Source: Candidatus Methylomirabilota bacterium (GTDB taxonomy: Bacteria > Methylomirabilota > Methylomirabilia > Rokubacteriales > CSP1-6). From it: 64,000 bases of DNA. The notes under the pieces are model-generated. The model was not told the origin of the DNA, ran no database searches, and saw nothing but the letters and a program-made list of their open reading frames with translations. This document shows positions 32,132 to 39,876 of this stretch, piece after piece (positions within the stretch are counted from its first letter, which is position 1; each line of letters begins with the position of its first letter). The stretch is taken from contig DATFYA010000021.1 in the NCBI GenBank assembly GCA_035315345.1, positions 31,674-95,673 of the forward strand. The letters are read 5' to 3'. The position numbers and the translations under genes were made by a program.

Positions 32132-33442
32132 CTATTGCGCGGCGGGGCCGAGCGTGACGATCGTCGGGGTCGTCAGGTAGGTCCGCGCCACGCGCTGCAC
32201 GTCCTCGGCGGTCACCGCCTCCACCGCCTGCGCGTAGCGATCGGCGAAGTCGGGGCCCACGCCGAGCGCCTCGAAGAACGCGTCGTACCAGGCGAGCCGC
32301 GCGTTCGTGCGCCGGTCCAGCCCGAACTGGCCGAGCAGGTAGGCCTTCGCGCGGGCCAGCTCGCTCGGGCTCACCGGCTCGCGCCGGATGCGATCGAGCT
32401 CGCCCAGCATCGCGACCTCGGCACGAGCCTGATTGGCGGGAGCCGTGCCGAGCTGGGTGTAGAAGACCCCGGGGCCGCGGCGTGATGGGTACGAGCCGCC
32501 GGTCGAGTACGCCAGCCCCTGCTTGTCCCGGACCTCGGTGAAGAGGCGTCCGGCCATGCCCCCGCCGAGCGCGGTGGCCAGCACCTTCACCGCCGGGTAG
32601 TCGGGGTGCGCGGTGGGCGGGGCGAGGAACGCGACCAGCACCTGGGCCTGCGCGGCGGGCTTCACGAGCACGGTGCGGTCCGCCCGGGCCGCCGCGGAAG
32701 GCTCCAAGGGTTCGGGAGCGCTCTCTTCCGTCGACGCCCCCGCGAATCGCCGGGCCACCTCGGCCACGACCTCCCGGGCCGTGATGTCGCCGCTCACCGC
32801 GAGGATGATGCGGGGCGCGCGGTAGAAGCGCCGATGGTGGGCGACCAGGGTATCGTGATCGATGCGCTCGAGCGCGGCGGCTCGCCCGAGGATCGGCCGG
32901 CCGTACGGATGGTCGCCGTACACGCGGCTCATGACGGTGTCCAGGGCGAGCGGAAACGGCTGATCCTGCCGGCTGCGGAGCGCGGTCAGCATGGCGCGAC
33001 GCTCTCCGTCGATCTCGGCCGCGGGGAGCGTGGGCCGGAGCGCGACGTCCGCCACCAGATCGAGCAGGGTCTTCCAGTTGCGAGCGAGCGCGGTGGCGCG
33101 GATCTCGGAATAGTCCATGTCCGCCGAGGCGCTGATGCCACCCCCGAGCCCCTCCGCGGTCTCGGCGATCTCGAGCGCGGAGCGCGTGGCGGTGCCCTTC
33201 AGCATCACCTGCTGGAGCAGATGGCTGATGCCCGCGTTGTCCTCGGTCTCCCAGCGCGAGCCCATGCGGACGAACAGCGAGGCCGCGACCACCGGCGTGG
33301 CCGCGTTCTCCCGCACCAGGATGGTGAGCCCGTTGGCGAGGCGCGTCCGCTGCGGTCCGGAAGCGGACGCGGCGCCGGCGGCCACGCCGAGCAGCGTGAG
33401 GGCGGCCGCGACCGCAAGAGCGGCCCGCCGACGGCCGGTCAT
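32132..33442 (-). CDS. exported M16 family peptidase, non-catalytic partner subunit (zinc motif degenerated to HLLQQ)
   Basis: About 436 aa starting MTGRRRAALAVAAALTLLGVAAGAASA (signal or Tat-like). It has the M16 fold, but the position of the HxxEH zinc inversion motif reads ISHLLQQVMLKGT, lacking the Glu and second His. Its ATG overlaps the stop of the active M16 gene (ATGA at 33439..33442). Confidence 0.8.
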   Translation of the reverse strand: MTGRRRAALAVAAALTLLGVAAGAASASGPQRTRLANGLTILVRENAATPVVAASLFVRMGSRWETEDNAGISHLLQQVMLKGTATRSALEIAETAEGLGGGISASADMDYSEIRATALARNWKTLLDLVADVALRPTLPAAEIDGERRAMLTALRSRQDQPFPLALDTVMSRVYGDHPYGRPILGRAAALERIDHDTLVAHHRRFYRAPRIILAVSGDITAREVVAEVARRFAGASTEESAPEPLEPSAAARADRTVLVKPAAQAQVLVAFLAPPTAHPDYPAVKVLATALGGGMAGRLFTEVRDKQGLAYSTGGSYPSRRGPGVFYTQLGTAPANQARAEVAMLGELDRIRREPVSPSELARAKAYLLGQFGLDRRTNARLAWYDAFFEALGVGPDFADRYAQAVEAVTAEDVQRVARTYLTTPTIVTLGPAAQ

Positions 33443-34806
33443 TGCGCGCGTCCTCGCGGCACGAAGGCCAGACGCGCGTAGGAGCCGGTCAGGTAGCGGC
33501 GCGCGGCCTGCTGGACCTGATCGCGGGTCACCGCCCGGATCCGATCCACATAGGTGCGCTCCGCCTCGAGGTTCCACGTGGTCTCCGCGCGCCCGTAGGC
33601 CAGGGCCAGGCCCTCGACGGTCTCGCGCGAGAATTCCCGCTCGGCTTCGGACGCGGTGATGGCCCGCGCCAGCTCCTCTGCGGTCACGCCCTCCGACTGC
33701 ACGCGCGCGATCTCGGCCATGATCGCCTTCTCGACCGCGTCCTGATCGGAGCCCTCGAGCTGCGCGGTCACGCCGAGGGCTCCCGCACCCTGCAGCGTCC
33801 CGTACCACCCGCTGATGCTCGACACCAGTCGGGCGCGCTCGCGCAGCGCCTGATTGAGGCGCGAGCTGCGTGAGCCGCCGAGGATGTGGCTGAGCACGTC
33901 CACCGCCGGCATGTCGGGATCGCCGAGCGGCGGGGCCAGCCAGGCGAATCCGAGCTGGGTCTGACGCTCGGGACGCTCCACCGAGCGGGCGCGCACTCCC
34001 TCGAGCGGAGCCGGCGCGCCGACCGGTGGCCGCGCATAGCCGGTGGCGGGCCGCGAGCCGAAGGCCTCGATCGCCGCCGCGCGCACCGCGGCGGGGTCCA
34101 CCGGGCCGACCACCACGAGGGTCAGGTTGTCGGGCACGTAGTGCCGCGCATAGTAGCCGCGCAACGACTCCGGGGTGGCGTCACGCAGATCCTTGACGTC
34201 TCCCAGCACCGGTCGGCCATAGGGATGACCGTCATAGAGGAGGTTGTACAGTTGCCGTCCGAGCGAGGAGCGTGGGTTGTCCTCGTTCAGTCGGACCTCC
34301 TCGAAGACCACCTCGCGCTCGCGCCCCAGCTCGGCGGGATCGAACACCGAGTTGAGCACCATGTCCGCCATCAACGAGATGCCGGAGAGCGCGCGCGCCG
34401 CCGGCAACAGGAGATAGTAGAAGGTGTAGTCGTTGGACGTTCCCGCGTTCGTCCGGCCGCCGACTGCTTCGACCTCGCGATCCACGAAGCCACGCGGGCG
34501 CGTCGTGGTGCCCTTGAAGAGCATGTGCTCCGCGAAATGGGAGAACCCTCGCTCGCCGATCGCTTCGTCGCGGCCGCCCACACCCGCCCAGAGGTGGATC
34601 GCCACCGTGCTGGCCGCCCGATGCTCCTGCACGATGAGACGCATGCCGTTCGGCAGAACCTCTCTCACCAGTGGAGGCAGACCGTGGCGCTGCGATGGCG
34701 TTGTGGACGCAGATCGCGTGGATGCCGGGGCCGCACACCCACTGATCCCCATCGACAGCCCGAGGAGCGCGCAGACGAGTGCGCGCGTGGAGAGGGAGGG
34801 GAACAT
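33439..34806 (-). CDS. exported M16 family zinc peptidase, catalytic subunit (HFAEH motif), probable lipoprotein
   Basis: About 455 aa starting MFPSLSTRALVCALLGLSMGISGC (lipobox-like). It carries an intact HxxEH motif (GFSHFAEHMLFKGT) and a downstream Glu-containing region. The ORF-track start at 34905 is an extension. Confidence 0.8.
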   Translation of the reverse strand: MFPSLSTRALVCALLGLSMGISGCAAPASTRSASTTPSQRHGLPPLVREVLPNGMRLIVQEHRAASTVAIHLWAGVGGRDEAIGERGFSHFAEHMLFKGTTTRPRGFVDREVEAVGGRTNAGTSNDYTFYYLLLPAARALSGISLMADMVLNSVFDPAELGREREVVFEEVRLNEDNPRSSLGRQLYNLLYDGHPYGRPVLGDVKDLRDATPESLRGYYARHYVPDNLTLVVVGPVDPAAVRAAAIEAFGSRPATGYARPPVGAPAPLEGVRARSVERPERQTQLGFAWLAPPLGDPDMPAVDVLSHILGGSRSSRLNQALRERARLVSSISGWYGTLQGAGALGVTAQLEGSDQDAVEKAIMAEIARVQSEGVTAEELARAITASEAEREFSRETVEGLALAYGRAETTWNLEAERTYVDRIRAVTRDQVQQAARRYLTGSYARLAFVPRGRAQ

Positions 34807-34950
34807 TGCGGCTACACGGTACCAGAGCGCCCCAGTGCCCTCAAGCGGCTCAGCCGAGGCAGTCTGCCGGACGGCCGTGCTGCGCCATGCCGGGCAGAAC
34901 GCCATGGCCCGCTTCGAGCGCCTACGGTGTGCTGACCGTATCTGTCTAAT

Positions 34951-34970
34951 TTATTTGACGTTATTTGACA
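34951..34970 (+). promoter_or_regulatory. tandem direct repeat TTATTTGACG / TTATTTGACA upstream of the repeat-protein gene
   Basis: Two adjacent 10-bp copies lie in an AT-rich island within the divergent intergenic region between the M16 peptidase operon and the plus-strand repeat gene. This could be a regulator binding site or -35-like elements. Confidence 0.3.
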
Positions 34971-34978
34971 GGAACCTC

Positions 34979-34996
34979 TTGGCATCCCTGGTGCAT
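34979..34996 (+). promoter_or_regulatory. sigma54-like -24/-12 element (TTGGCAT-N5-GGTGCAT)
   Basis: The GG and GC dinucleotides are spaced exactly as in the TGGCAC-N5-TTGCA consensus, about 100 nt upstream of the ATG at 35097. No convincing sigma70 -10 is present. Confidence 0.3.
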
Positions 34997-35096
34997 CCAA
35001 AGCGTGAGTCCGGGGCCCCAGGAAGCCAGATCGCAAACGGGGAAGACGGCGGCAGCAAACGCAACACACGAGACGAACTGAGAAAGGATCACACAG

Positions 35097-36404
35097 ATGA
35101 GAAAGGTGCTGGCAACGGTGTTGAGTGTGGTGTCGGCGGTCTCCCTCTCGGCCACGGTCGGGATGGCTCAGACCTCCTGCCCCGCCGAGGTGGCATCCGC
35201 GAAGGCCATGCTGGGTCAGATGGCCAAGAGCCAGGACGTCCAGGCGCCTCGCTCGCTGGCGGGCGCTCGGTCGCAGGACGTGCAGGCGCCGCGGGCTCAG
35301 GATGTGCAGGCTCCGCGGTCGCAGGATATCCAGGCGCCCCGTTCGCTGGCGGGCGCTCGGTCGCAGGACGTGCAGGCGCCGCGCGGTCAGGACATCCAGG
35401 CTCCGCGTAGCCAGGACATCCAGGCTCCGCGTGGTCAGAACATCCAGGCGCCGCGCAGTCAGGACGTTCAGGCTCCTCGGAGTCAGGACATCCAGGCCCC
35501 GCGCTCGCTAGCGGGCGCCCGGTCGCAGGACGTGCAGGCTCCTCGCGGTCAGGACATCCAGGCCCCGCGTGGTCAGGACGTTCAGGCGCCGCGCAGCCAG
35601 GACGTGCAGGCTCCCCGCGGTCAGGACATCCAGGCCCCACGTGGTCAGAACATCCAGGCTCCGCGCAGCCAGGACGTGCAGGCGCCGCGTGGCCAGGACA
35701 TCCAGGCCCCGCGTGGTCAGGACGTGCAGGCTCCTCGCAGCCAGGACATCCAGGCTCCGCGCTCGATGGCGGGGGCTCGGTCGCAGGACGTCCAGGCTCC
35801 GCGCAGCCAGGACGTGCAGGCTCCGCGCGGTCAGGACATCCAGGCGCCGCGTGGCCAGGACATCCAGGCCCCGCGTGGTCAGGACGTGCAGGCTCCTCGC
35901 AGCCAGGACGTACAGGCGCCGCGCGGTCAGAACATCCAGGCCCCGCGTGGTCAGGACGTGCAGGCTCCTCGTAGCCAGGACGTACAGGCGCCGCGCGGTC
36001 AGAACATCCAGGCCCCGCGTGGCCAGGACGTGCAGGCTCCTCGTAGCCAGGACGTACAGGCTCCTCGCGGTCAGGACATCCAGGCCCCGCGTGGCCAGGA
36101 CGTGCAGGCTCCTCGTAGCCAGGACGTGCAGGCTCCTCGGGGTCAGGACATCCAGGCTCCGCGCAGCCAGGACGTGCAGGCTCCTCGTGGCCAGGACATC
36201 CAGGCTCCTCGCGGCCAGAACATCCAGGCTCCGCGGACCCAGGACGTGCAGGCCCCGCGTGCCCAGGATGTGCAGGCTCCGCGCTCGGCTGATTTCAAGA
36301 AGGCTTCTGGCCTCGTGAGCGAGGCGGAGGCCGCGTGCAAGGCCGGGAACACGTCGCTGGCCAGTGACAAGGCCAAGGCGGCGATGGAGCTGATGAAGAA
36401 GTAG
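35097..36404 (+). CDS. secreted tandem-repeat protein: signal peptide + 41 x octapeptide (S/G)-Q-D-(V/I)-Q-A-P-R with four S(L/M)AGAR inserts + short helical C-terminal tail
   Basis: 435-aa ORF with an AAGGA RBS 8 nt upstream. It has an N-terminal signal peptide (MRKVLATVLSVVSAVSLSATVGMA|QTS) and a 1056-nt perfectly in-frame 24-nt repeat array. The flanks are related Cys-containing Ala/Lys-rich segments (SCPAEVASAKAML / AACKAGNTSLASDKAKAAMELMKK). A strong intrinsic terminator follows. I do not recognise a homologous family. Confidence 0.85.
   Translation: MRKVLATVLSVVSAVSLSATVGMAQTSCPAEVASAKAMLGQMAKSQDVQAPRSLAGARSQDVQAPRAQDVQAPRSQDIQAPRSLAGARSQDVQAPRGQDIQAPRSQDIQAPRGQNIQAPRSQDVQAPRSQDIQAPRSLAGARSQDVQAPRGQDIQAPRGQDVQAPRSQDVQAPRGQDIQAPRGQNIQAPRSQDVQAPRGQDIQAPRGQDVQAPRSQDIQAPRSMAGARSQDVQAPRSQDVQAPRGQDIQAPRGQDIQAPRGQDVQAPRSQDVQAPRGQNIQAPRGQDVQAPRSQDVQAPRGQNIQAPRGQDVQAPRSQDVQAPRGQDIQAPRGQDVQAPRSQDVQAPRGQDIQAPRSQDVQAPRGQDIQAPRGQNIQAPRTQDVQAPRAQDVQAPRSADFKKASGLVSEAEAACKAGNTSLASDKAKAAMELMKK
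35229..36284 (+). repeat. 24-nt coding tandem repeat array (41 copies plus four 18-nt insert units)
   Basis: Consensus unit caggacgtgcaggctcctcgcggt. Copies differ mostly at synonymous third positions (gcg/gct/gcc, ccg/cct/ccc, cgc/cgt/cgg, gtg/gtc/atc). It generates spurious antisense ORFs at 35089..35640 and 35508..36422. Confidence 0.95.
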
Positions 36405-36426
36405 GGATCGGTACCGAAACACCCAC

Positions 36427-36461
36427 GGCCCCGGGGGCGACCTCGGGGCCGTTTCTTTTTC
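36427..36461 (+). terminator. rho-independent terminator of the repeat-protein gene (possibly bidirectional, also downstream of phnE)
   Basis: GGCCCCG-GGGGCGACCT-CGGGGCC hairpin followed by GTTTCTTTTTC, 23 nt after the stop codon. Confidence 0.7.
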
Positions 36462-36470
36462 GCACGCCGA

Positions 36471-39213: not shown

Positions 39214-39876
39214 ATGATCCCCGAGATGATCTCGACGACGACCGATGCTCGCGACGTGTTGTTCGTCGGCGACGTGCAGGGGTGCGCGGCGGAGCTGCGC
39301 GATCTCCTGCAGGCCTCGGGCTTCGATCGCCGGCGCCATCGCCTGGCGCTCTGCGGCGATCTGATCAACCGCGGGCCGGACAGCGTCGGCGTGCTCGAGC
39401 TGGCGCGCGAGCTCGACGCGGTGGCCGTTCTCGGCAACCACGAGGTCTCGCTGATCGAAGGTCGCGCCTCGGCGTCGCTGGACCTGGTCCGGGCGCAGCT
39501 GGGCCGGTCGCTGGACGAGTGGCTCGGCTGGCTGCGGGCCCTGCCCACGTTCGTCGTCGAGGCAGACTACATCCTCGTGCACGCCGGCATCGCGCCGGGC
39601 AAGCGCCCGGAGGAGTGCACGCGGGAGGAGCTGACCGAGATCCGCACCGTCGACGGGGGCGTGCCGTGGTTCGATTTCTGGCGCGGACCCGAGACCGTCG
39701 TCTTCGGCCACTGGGCCGCGCGGGGCCGCGTCGACCGGCCGCTCTGCAAGGGTCTCGATACCGGCTGCGTGTACGGCGGGCGGCTCACCGGACTCTGGTG
39801 GCCGCGGCGCGAGTGGGTCTCGGTGCCCGCGCACCGGGCCTGGTTCGTTCGCGCCGGCGACCACGCGGCCGGATAG
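39214..39876 (+). CDS. metallophosphoesterase, ApaH-like (diadenosine tetraphosphatase / PPP-family phosphatase)
   Basis: GDVQGC...GDLINRGPDS...GNHE motifs as in symmetrical Ap4A hydrolase ApaH and PP2B-like phosphatases. It is a lone plus-strand gene divergent from the methyltransferase. Confidence 0.75.
   Translation: MIPEMISTTTDARDVLFVGDVQGCAAELRDLLQASGFDRRRHRLALCGDLINRGPDSVGVLELARELDAVAVLGNHEVSLIEGRASASLDLVRAQLGRSLDEWLGWLRALPTFVVEADYILVHAGIAPGKRPEECTREELTEIRTVDGGVPWFDFWRGPETVVFGHWAARGRVDRPLCKGLDTGCVYGGRLTGLWWPRREWVSVPAHRAWFVRAGDHAAG

Follow-up and report, generated by a model that had tools for sequence, protein, structure and literature searches.

Introduction

Hydrophilins are reportedly recognised, by the criteria attributed to Garay-Arroyo et al. 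2000, from a glycine content above 6% and a mean hydrophilicity above 1, which corresponds to a grand average of hydropathy (GRAVY) below about -1. Together with the late embryogenesis abundant (LEA) proteins, they are among the described systems closest to the protein studied here, the 435-residue product of an open reading frame (ORF) at 35097..36404 (+) of a 64,000-nucleotide stretch of DNA from a Candidatus Methylomirabilota bacterium (contig DATFYA010000021.1, positions 31,674 to 95,673 of the forward strand; hereafter, the window). The window protein is similar to hydrophilins and LEA proteins in its short tandem repeats, extreme hydrophilicity, glycine content above 6%, predicted disorder and soil organism. 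In contrast, it has no sequence homology to them, appears to be Sec-exported, carries a predicted folded helical cap with two cysteines and lies behind a sigma-54 type promoter, and its repeats are Pro- and Gln-rich octapeptides rather than the amphipathic 11-mers of LEA proteins.

Gel-forming mucins consist of terminal Cys-bearing domains and a central variable-number tandem repeat. By architectural analogy only, the window protein likewise has Cys-bearing ends around a tandem array whose copy number varies among close relatives (208-435 residues), but it is bacterial, its caps are tiny with one Cys each, there is no evidence of glycosylation, and many of its units start with Gly instead of Ser or Thr. 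The precursors of yeast alpha-factor, Ustilago Rep1 and apidaecin share with it a signal peptide, near-identical units that each end in a basic residue, and concerted evolution. These are eukaryotic precursors that Kex2 or furin cleaves at dibasic sites, whereas the candidate sites in the window protein are a single Arg after Pro or Ala, and its flanks are better conserved than its units. To our knowledge, no Sec-exported multi-copy peptide precursor is known in bacteria.

Other likenesses are confined to parts of the protein or of its gene. The T4 gp5 beta-helix (PF22178) and Cornifin/SPRR (PF02389) have the same eight-residue period, which is the source of their profile matches; unlike them, the family described here has a variable repeat length, a Pro in each unit and no predicted beta structure, so the likeness is one of periodicity and not of homology. 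The caps resemble the DUF4398 protein PA2901 (PDB 4fm3), a small periplasmic three-helix bundle, and the hairpin of Atg38 (PDB 5kc1), which is MIT/TPR-like. In contrast to both, the Rokubacteria bundle would have as many as 400 loop residues inserted between its first and second helices, and its caps have no significant sequence relation to any Pfam family. ZraP, of the ZraSR regulon, is also an exported helical protein with a sigma-54 promoter and an upstream activator site (a candidate one in our case), but the window protein has neither homology to ZraP nor metal-binding residues, and no GAFTGA protein is encoded in the window or in the flanks of the homologous loci.

Here we show that the window gene belongs to a real, conserved and unnamed gene family of uncultured soil Rokubacteria. 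The family falls in the broad kind of secreted, disordered tandem-repeat proteins but in no described family, and its distinctive architecture would be a split three-helix bundle with a hypervariable repeat loop, accompanied by a conserved sigma-54 module. As to function, the leading candidate, which we put forward tentatively, is an inducible, exported, disordered, hydrophilin-like loop or spacer of the envelope whose ends form a small Cys-stapled bundle.

Architecture of the repeat protein

The ORF has an ATG start and its stop codon lies within 35097..36404; its assignment as coding sequence relies on an architecture common to homologues and on synonymous variation at the third positions of its frame. 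The product comprises a 24-residue signal sequence, a 20-residue segment with Cys28, 41 octapeptides interspersed with 4 hexapeptides, and a 39-residue tail with Cys414. Splitting the protein with a regular expression gave exactly 41 octapeptides of consensus [SGAT]Q[DN][VI]QAPR. The commonest variants were SQDVQAPR (13 copies, counting the first unit, which is joined to the N-terminal flank), GQDIQAPR (9) and GQDVQAPR (6), followed by GQNIQAPR (5), SQDIQAPR (4), AQDVQAPR (2) and TQDVQAPR (1). The S[LM]AGAR hexapeptides within the array are SLAGAR in three cases and SMAGAR in one. Together these units make up 352 residues (45-396), predicted to be disordered and encoded at 35229..36284 (+), where Tandem Repeats Finder reported periods of 24, 48 and 72 nt. 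An earlier sequence-only reading of this DNA had described an exported protein with a 24-residue signal peptide, 41 octapeptides and a 352-residue array with S(L/M)AGAR inserts, all of which we recovered. It had also noted an exactly duplicated 42-nt block; the duplication is exact, at 35253 and 35343, but the block is 41 nt long.

With 45 Arg and 36 Asp residues, the array is charged at a fraction of 0.23 of its residues and has a net charge of +9. Thus, it is not the perfect polyampholyte that had been proposed, since five units carry Asn in place of Asp and the inserts add Arg without an acidic residue. Similarly, the Gln content is 23% in the array and 19% in the protein as a whole, and not 25%. 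The GRAVY value and glycine content were -1.26 and 6.8% for the array and -1.11 and 6.6% for the mature protein, which places the mature protein within the operational hydrophilin thresholds for composition. The nitrogen content is 1.57 N atoms per residue. Based on the GRAVY value, glycine content, charge fraction and evenly interleaved charges of the mature protein, it should behave as an expanded, soluble polyampholyte coil.

The putative Sec signal peptide, MRKVLATVLSVVSAVSLSATVGMA (35097..35168, +), has an n-h-c layout and a G-M-A cleavage motif. By inspection, the features expected of a signal peptidase I (SPase I) substrate are present, namely a basic n-region (MRK), a hydrophobic h-region (VLATVLSVVSAVSLSA) and small residues at -3 and -1 (TVGMA, with Q following the cut). 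The family consensus is MKK-hydrophobic-AxA, then Q/A-x-x-C-P. Processing of the window product as a lipoprotein by SPase II was considered and rejected, as the lipobox [LVI][ASTVI][GAS]C is absent and Cys28 is preceded by Q-T-S. The residues before the first Cys of other members (QSA, ASP, ADK) do not match a lipobox either.

The N-terminal cap (35178..35240, +) is formed by Cys28-Pro-x-Glu-Val and a helix at residues 30-48, with C28, P29 and E31 invariant. The C-terminal cap (36285..36401, +) is a predicted helical hairpin, SADFKKASGLVSEAEAACKAGNTSLASDKAKAAMELMKK, which contains Cys414 and is defined by its AlphaFold helices and by the invariant residues L406, E411, A413, C414, K415, G417 and K425. 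The two flanks had been described as helical, as bearing one Cys each and as mutually similar. The first two properties agree with the predicted structures and with the cysteine pattern of the family; as to the third, BLASTP detected no similarity between the flanks.

An unnamed family in Rokubacteria

Among 5.8 billion proteins searched, 47 metagenomic ones, all unnamed, had the same design, and a pattern scan of one genome per GTDB species confirmed at least 104 family loci. Almost all of these loci are in metagenome-assembled genomes (MAGs) of Candidatus Rokubacteria, Rokuibacteriota or Methylomirabilota, some of which contain two or three copies. In a profile search of 1.84 billion cluster representatives, 962 matches had E <= 1e-3 and 94 had E <= 1e-30; the proteins of 739-3724 residues matched by this profile are unrelated, eukaryote-like repeat proteins.

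In all 53 intact members, the mature chain has exactly two cysteines. In each of them, the signal peptide is of the AxA type, C-P-x-E-[VL] leads into a helix, and the first QAPR is succeeded by [ST][LM]AGA[RK] and then by the array; their C-terminal motif is L-[VI]-x-E-A-E-A-A-C-K-A-G-[DN]-M...K-A-K-A-A. The caps are the best conserved part of the proteins. We propose to define the family by a signal peptide; a C-P-x-E-[VL] helix; a first xQAPR followed by [ST][LM]AGA[RK]; units ending in [AS]-P-R; an L-[VI]-x-[EQ]-[AS]-E-x-A-C-K-x-G hairpin; and exactly two cysteines. Every one of these elements is found in the window protein.

The arrays of the family have 6-50 Arg-delimited units (median 21), each of 6-10 residues. 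The units are clade-specific, and include GQEVQAPR, GQDAQAPR, TQDVNAPR, GNQDVQSPR, AGQDIQAPR, SSTQDVQAPR and ENPQAAR; the constant pattern runs from an acidic residue through Q or N and a small residue to P-R. A comparison of copy number between related genomes, as the sequence-only reading had suggested, showed that the closest relatives, with tails 84-93% identical, are 208-366 residues long as compared to 435 in the window. This wide difference in length among proteins with similar tails indicates that repeat copy number changes quickly.

The earlier reading had recognised no family in the sequence. This holds for curated families and for the literature, although an unnamed family does exist. 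No Pfam or NCBIfam family covers the window protein, for which whole-protein scans gave only periodicity-driven or sub-threshold matches; a PADLOC scan of the whole protein gave nothing usable, and cap constructs from which the repeats had been excised matched nothing in Pfam below E = 0.01. Our literature searches found no paper with the peptide motifs, and nothing relevant on Rokubacteria combined with sigma-54, repeats or metaproteomics. The proteogenomics paper of Butterfield 2016 makes no mention of such a protein.

The family gene also occurs in MAGs labelled Acidoferrum, Limnocylindria, Deferrimicrobiaceae, Verrucomicrobiia, Dormiibacterota, Nitrosocosmicus, Actinomycetes and Binatia (loci under other taxon labels: L008, L010, L012/L013/L033, L017, L019, L030-L032, L039, L053 and L066). 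Because most of these contigs share Rokubacteria synteny, the labels are likely due to binning contamination. A different case is the 475-residue protein P0088 (L090, 8001-9428), which is unrelated and is encoded on a Bacteroidota-like contig among neighbours with type IX secretion system (T9SS) tails. It has a Toxin_SdpC domain, an adjoining SdpA gene, a C-terminal transmembrane segment and about 25 octapeptides of the form RQ[IV]D[VL]Q[AT]PR, which have the hexamer DVQAPR in common with the window protein. This shared hexamer could be a result of convergence or of repeat shuffling.

Reality of the gene and selection on the peptide

A repetitive ORF in high-G+C DNA with all six frames open might be an assembly artefact or a chance ORF, and the sequence-only reading had named an artefact as the finding that would overturn it. 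In agreement with this concern, ORFs for 249-304 residues overlap the gene in other frames, public short-read contigs often break within homologous arrays, and Nanopore MAGs are frameshifted there. However, an identical-length gene of 1308 nt, with 0-2 single-nucleotide polymorphisms, is present on four independently assembled JGI metagenome contigs from four samples. Furthermore, there are 35 distinct 24-mers among the 41 units, so that units can be told apart at the DNA level and the array can be assembled. The differences between units fall mostly at third positions (Ala GCG/GCT/GCC, Pro CCT/CCG/CCC/CCA, Arg CGC/CGG/CGT), a pattern compatible only with this frame, while Gln2, Gln5, Ala6, Pro7 and Arg8 are unchanged in 41/41 units. 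Finally, conservation over at least 104 family loci extends to the signal peptide and caps as well as to the promoter and terminator. The chance that this is not a real gene is therefore close to nil. The synonymous codon drift alongside the invariant Q..QAPR indicates that purifying selection acts on the peptide in the reading frame of the ORF.

The off-frame ORFs, for 304 residues at 35508-36422 (-) and 249 residues at 35569-36318 (+), arise because the stop-free repeat also opens other frames; their translations are rich in Arg, Leu and Thr, and they are by-products of the repeat and not genes. Short-read contig edges lie within the array at L012, L014, L015, L023, L045, L046, L059, L060, L063, L071, L073, L074 and L076, and frameshifts in the array occur in the long-read (MFD) MAGs at L020, L031, L040, L050 and L072. 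Database calls may also be chimeric or over-extended, as in P0010 (with a cupin), P0035 (with DnaJ) and P0041 (with ankyrin), and the family is systematically mis-annotated. Three of the four contigs that carry the window gene (L087, L088, L089) start 134-169 nt upstream of it, near the AT-rich and promoter region, and the upstream sequence of L089 differs at 79/130 compared bases. This may reflect a strain-level rearrangement or an assembly break at the intergenic region. An exact cluster look-up of the window protein found no entry in the collection; the contig index did match it.

Predicted structure of the caps and the array

In the AlphaFold model of the window protein, the N-terminal helix (residues 30-48) and the two hairpin helices (395-415 and 419-434) were predicted with pLDDT values of ~95, and the array had no secondary structure, with pLDDT values of 40-49. 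Similar results were obtained for a homologue with seven repeats, in which the N-terminal helix reached ~85, the hairpin ~90 and the array, again without secondary structure, ~41. The caps superposed on PDB 4fm3 over 61 residues at 2.1 A. Since this superposition requires three helices packed together, we infer that the N-terminal helix docks on the hairpin, and the caps thus probably form a three-helix bundle. Part of the structural alignments might be due to the signal-peptide helix. A Foldseek search against the PDB gave nothing significant, and a profile of the C-terminal segment matched the Atg38 hairpin with E = 2e-4. Cys28 lies just before the first helix and Cys414 at the end of the second; an up-down-up bundle would bring them together, so that a disulfide could form between them.

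Promoter, leader and terminator

A sigma-54 type -24/-12 element, TGGCATCCCTGGTGCA (34980..34995, +; TGGCAT-N5-GTGCA), lies upstream of the gene. It has the -24 GG and the -12 GC at the exact GG-N10-GC spacing, with flanks near the consensus TGGCAC-N5-TTGCA, and it is the sole match to TGGCAY-N6-TGCW in the 64 kb. A homologous element with a freely varying spacer is found 50-170 nt upstream of the gene in 44/55 loci by the strict pattern, and in ~52/55 loci at two or fewer mismatches, as compared to 0.012 background occurrences per 220 nt across the loci overall. The proposal of a sigma54-like promoter is thus well borne out by comparison among homologues.

Two palindromes lie further upstream and are candidate upstream activator sites for an enhancer-binding protein. 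One is GGCAGTCTGCC (34858..34868, +), ~118 nt upstream of the -24 box, which falls in a conserved block, GRCAGTTTGYC, in the upstream alignment of close relatives. The other, TGCCGGGCAGAACGCC (34888..34903, +), contains the near-palindrome GGCAGAAnGCC and is located ~86 nt upstream of the -24 box. Nearly all loci of the main clade have a GGCAGAA[TCA]G[CT]C sequence at 87-113 nt before the sigma-54 box (background 0.02 per 400 nt). Both palindromes are absent from the paralogue clade described below and are within the region shared with a divergent operon for M16 peptidases, and the TGCCGGGCAGAACGCC site could serve that operon instead. No NtrC-type site was seen in the aligned upstream regions, and neither the window nor the +/-6 kb flanks of 85 loci encode a GAFTGA (enhancer-binding) protein.

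Between the palindromes and the box is an AT-rich tract (34941..34972, +; 69% A+T in a genome of 70% G+C) with the direct repeat TTATTTGAC-G-TTATTTGAC at 34951-34969, just upstream of the box. Relatives are AT-rich at the same place, and some of them (L009, L011, L044) have a perfect consensus for integration host factor (IHF), TAAnnnnTTGATA, in place of the repeat. In sigma-54 promoters, this is the usual position of an IHF or DNA-bending site. The 5' leader of ~90 nt contains the palindrome GGGGCCCC (35012..35019, +), which is conserved among the closest relatives only and could be an mRNA 5' hairpin or an operator. The putative ribosome-binding site (RBS), GAAAGGA (35082..35088, +), is 8 nt before the ATG and is kept in the upstream alignment. 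An intrinsic terminator at 36425..36462 (+), with a 12-bp G+C-rich stem (36425-36452) and a T-run, follows the gene, and an equivalent hairpin and T-run come after the stop codon in 37/37 other loci examined. Rfam gave sub-threshold matches only on the locus, of which the BjrC68 match is the terminator hairpin. The strong RBS and the clean terminator of the sequence-only reading are thus both recovered. The arrangement of palindromes, AT-rich tract, box, leader and RBS resembles the classical sigma-54 layout, and the gene appears from its sequence elements to be transcribed on its own, from a sigma-54 promoter to a private terminator, and to have a strong RBS.

Genomic neighbourhood and the paralogue clade

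Almost all other genes of the window are on the minus strand. The repeat gene had been called the only substantial gene on the plus strand, but a 220-residue Metallophos protein is also encoded there (~39214-39876, +). In the main clade, genes for FtsJ, a rhomboid protein and two exported M16 peptidases, all leftward, precede the rightward repeat gene. It is followed by a gene for an S1 (Trypsin_2) protease in about half of the loci and, further downstream, by a leftward PhnE/PhnC-like ABC pair in some loci and then by a leftward HIT gene. The neighbours in the window and in homologous loci are M16 peptidases, an ABC transporter, HIT, a methyltransferase, Band_7/NfeD and similar proteins. A functional link to the phosphonate-type ABC neighbours was rejected, as these are convergent and give way to other genes in relatives.

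The two tandem M16 genes of the window (32132-34905, -) are divergent from the repeat gene. The start of the proximal one is annotated inconsistently, at 34905 in the ORF list and at ~34644 by JGI; it is probably at ~34806, with a lipoprotein-type signal, MFPSLSTRALVCALLGLSMGISGC, and the distal M16 protein also has a signal peptide. Besides a signal peptide, the unusual S1 protease (L001, 8841-10172; L005, 9071-10531; ~35 further loci) contains an S1 domain of HtrA-like type (IQTDASAAGGDSGGP), a C-terminal transmembrane helix and, on the cytoplasmic side, a rhodanese domain, but it lacks a PDZ domain. Its active-site context is IQTDA...GDSGGP, which we take to be HtrA-like and not Arg-specific. 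The S1 protease gene is absent from the window and its whole clade. Co-transcription of the repeat gene with this protease gene was rejected, because the terminator and an own TATAGAAT -10 box lie between them.

In the paralogue clade (L033, 3833-6255; also L037, L038, L049 and L053), the proteins have CPAEL..., shorter arrays and an extra N-terminal helix. Their genes are always found directly after an RtcB RNA-ligase gene and before genes for DUF2267, CBS and cytochrome c proteins; the database entry P0040 wrongly fuses RtcB with the repeat protein. This clade retains its own sigma-54 box, ~55 nt upstream, and the terminator module. As these are kept in a different neighbourhood, nothing but its own promoter and terminator accompanies the gene throughout, and the linkage of the gene to proteases is suggestive but not compelling.

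Discussion

We tentatively favour a clasped envelope loop as the explanation for this family. After export, the N-terminal helix would pack on the C-terminal hairpin as a three-helix bundle, a Cys28-Cys414 disulfide would staple the bundle, and the 352-residue array would become a closed, highly hydrated and almost neutral polyampholyte loop. Each time an enhancer-binding protein fires, a burst of the protein would be produced in the periplasm or envelope, and the loop would work through bulk physics, by steric or entropic spacing and by hydrophilin-like water retention. The length of the array would drift freely between 6 and 50 units, with xQAPR and SLAGAR kept as short linear motifs that are plausibly contact or turnover sites for envelope proteases. 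Among the three roles considered in the sequence-only reading, a disordered periplasmic spacer linked by a disulfide through the terminal Cys pair fits best with the invariant cysteines, the helical caps and the disordered array.

Several observations weigh against this explanation. The strict Pro-Arg motif and the periodic Arg exceed the needs of a bulk-property polymer, and the motif fits a protease substrate equally well. A first AlphaFold model, of lower confidence, matched at low root-mean-square deviation only over the hairpin. Finally, mutual information between the N-terminal helix and the C-terminal hairpin yielded one strong inter-segment pair (V/A vs L/S); it separates two clades and may reflect a single event, and it is therefore not evidence of a contact.

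In an alternative that we consider unlikely, the protein is a polyprotein or pro-peptide. After export, cleavage of the array at every [AP]-R/[SGAT] junction, or behind the one Val or Ile in each unit, would release ~45 peptides of 6-8 residues as signals, antimicrobials or a nutrient pool, with the caps serving only to stabilise or deliver the precursor. Arg is strictly periodic, with Pro or Ala before it and a small residue after it, even in the SLAGAR inserts. Sites with Pro at P2, Arg at P1 and Gly or Ser at P1' are good sites for enzymes of the trypsin or thrombin type, and the array would suit such cleavage. As in pheromone polyproteins, the units are homogenised within a protein and differ between species. 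In addition, the two exported M16 peptidases are divergently adjacent in the main clade, and the S1 protease, which is membrane-anchored, is encoded just downstream in about half of the loci. However, it is the caps and not the units that are most conserved, with both cysteines invariant, and the units are heterogeneous within one protein (seven octapeptide variants in the window) and range from 6 to 10 residues. The S1 protease is missing from the clade of the window, has its own promoter behind a strong terminator elsewhere, and has an active-site context that looks HtrA-like. The M16-rhomboid-FtsJ-NAD kinase block is housekeeping synteny that is not found in the paralogue clade, and no receptor or transporter is linked to the gene. 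A narrower version, in which envelope proteases cut the Sec-exported polyprotein at every unit boundary and the species-specific unit is a signal or an antimicrobial, seems to us more doubtful still; the candidate cutters would be the divergent M16 pair, the HtrA-like S1 protease or a thrombin-like Pro-Arg-specific enzyme. The geometry of the caps and the invariant Cys pair would serve equally in a gel-forming, mucin-like matrix of disordered repeats in the periplasm or outside the cell, in which the N-terminal helix pairs with the C-terminal hairpin of the next molecule to give Cys-locked head-to-tail chains or networks. Terminal Cys caps around a variable tandem array match the mucin design, and the strong RBS and terminator suggest high expression. 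We nevertheless regard such a matrix as rather improbable, as a flexible linker would normally favour intramolecular closure at moderate concentration, glycosylation or cross-linking machinery was not found nearby, and the caps are already satisfied in cis in the single-chain AlphaFold model.

The remaining alternatives appear far less probable. A trimeric beta-helix fibre of octapeptide turns, as in T4 gp5, was suggested by a match to Pfam PF22178 (Gp5_trimer_C; 55.8 bits against a gathering cut-off of 30.9, E = 5.9e-15), by the common eight-residue period and by the one aliphatic residue per unit. Yet this match consists of five overlapping stretches on a periodic, low-complexity array, and all other Pfam matches are also to period-8 families (Cornifin, and Peptidase_M23 without a matched stretch), as expected of a periodicity artefact; Cornifin/SPRR itself was rejected at 27.3 bits against a gathering cut-off of 34.8. 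Moreover, every unit contains a Pro, the VxG signature is missing, units of 6-10 residues occur together in one protein, which a fixed eight-residue rise would not allow, and the single-chain AlphaFold model shows no strand in the array. We therefore rejected identity with gp5, and hold a fibre of this kind to be very improbable. We grant no more credence to a precursor of a ribosomally synthesised and post-translationally modified peptide (RiPP) with many cores, like that of thiovarsolin, or to a nitrogen-storage protein. The former was prompted by a weak match to NCBIfam NF033878 (28.8 bits, short of the cut-off of 35); a Sec signal peptide stands in place of a cytoplasmic leader, and no YcaO, TfuA, radical-SAM or other maturase is encoded within +/-10 kb here or in homologous loci, so the RiPP reading was rejected. 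Sigma-54 is often linked to nitrogen control, and both the promoter and the nitrogen content of the protein would agree with storage, but export of a nitrogen store is implausible and the aligned upstream regions show no NtrC-type site. The storage or matrix role proposed in the sequence-only reading thus found no support, as far as nitrogen storage is concerned, beyond composition.

If the polyprotein alternative were true, one sigma-54-triggered product would give rise to ~45 copies of a peptide of 6-8 residues without any RiPP machinery. With its loop processed, the protein would be the first Sec-exported multi-copy peptide precursor in bacteria, a counterpart of the multi-copy neuropeptide and pheromone precursors of eukaryotes. 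As a clasped loop, the explanation that we favour, the protein would provide a natural example of a folded clasp that holds a disordered loop of variable length, which would be useful for the study of disorder in the bacterial envelope. In either case, the sigma-54 box and the upstream palindrome (the GGCAGAATGCC site) offer a handle for finding the cognate regulator and its signal. A family definition would also improve MAG annotation, since the array breaks short-read assemblies and yields frameshifts and chimeric calls. Rokubacteria are abundant uncultured soil bacteria, and very few of their lineage-specific traits are understood. The family described here is nearly phylum-wide, is often present in several copies, appears to be tightly regulated and built for high expression, and yet has had no name, Pfam model or paper.

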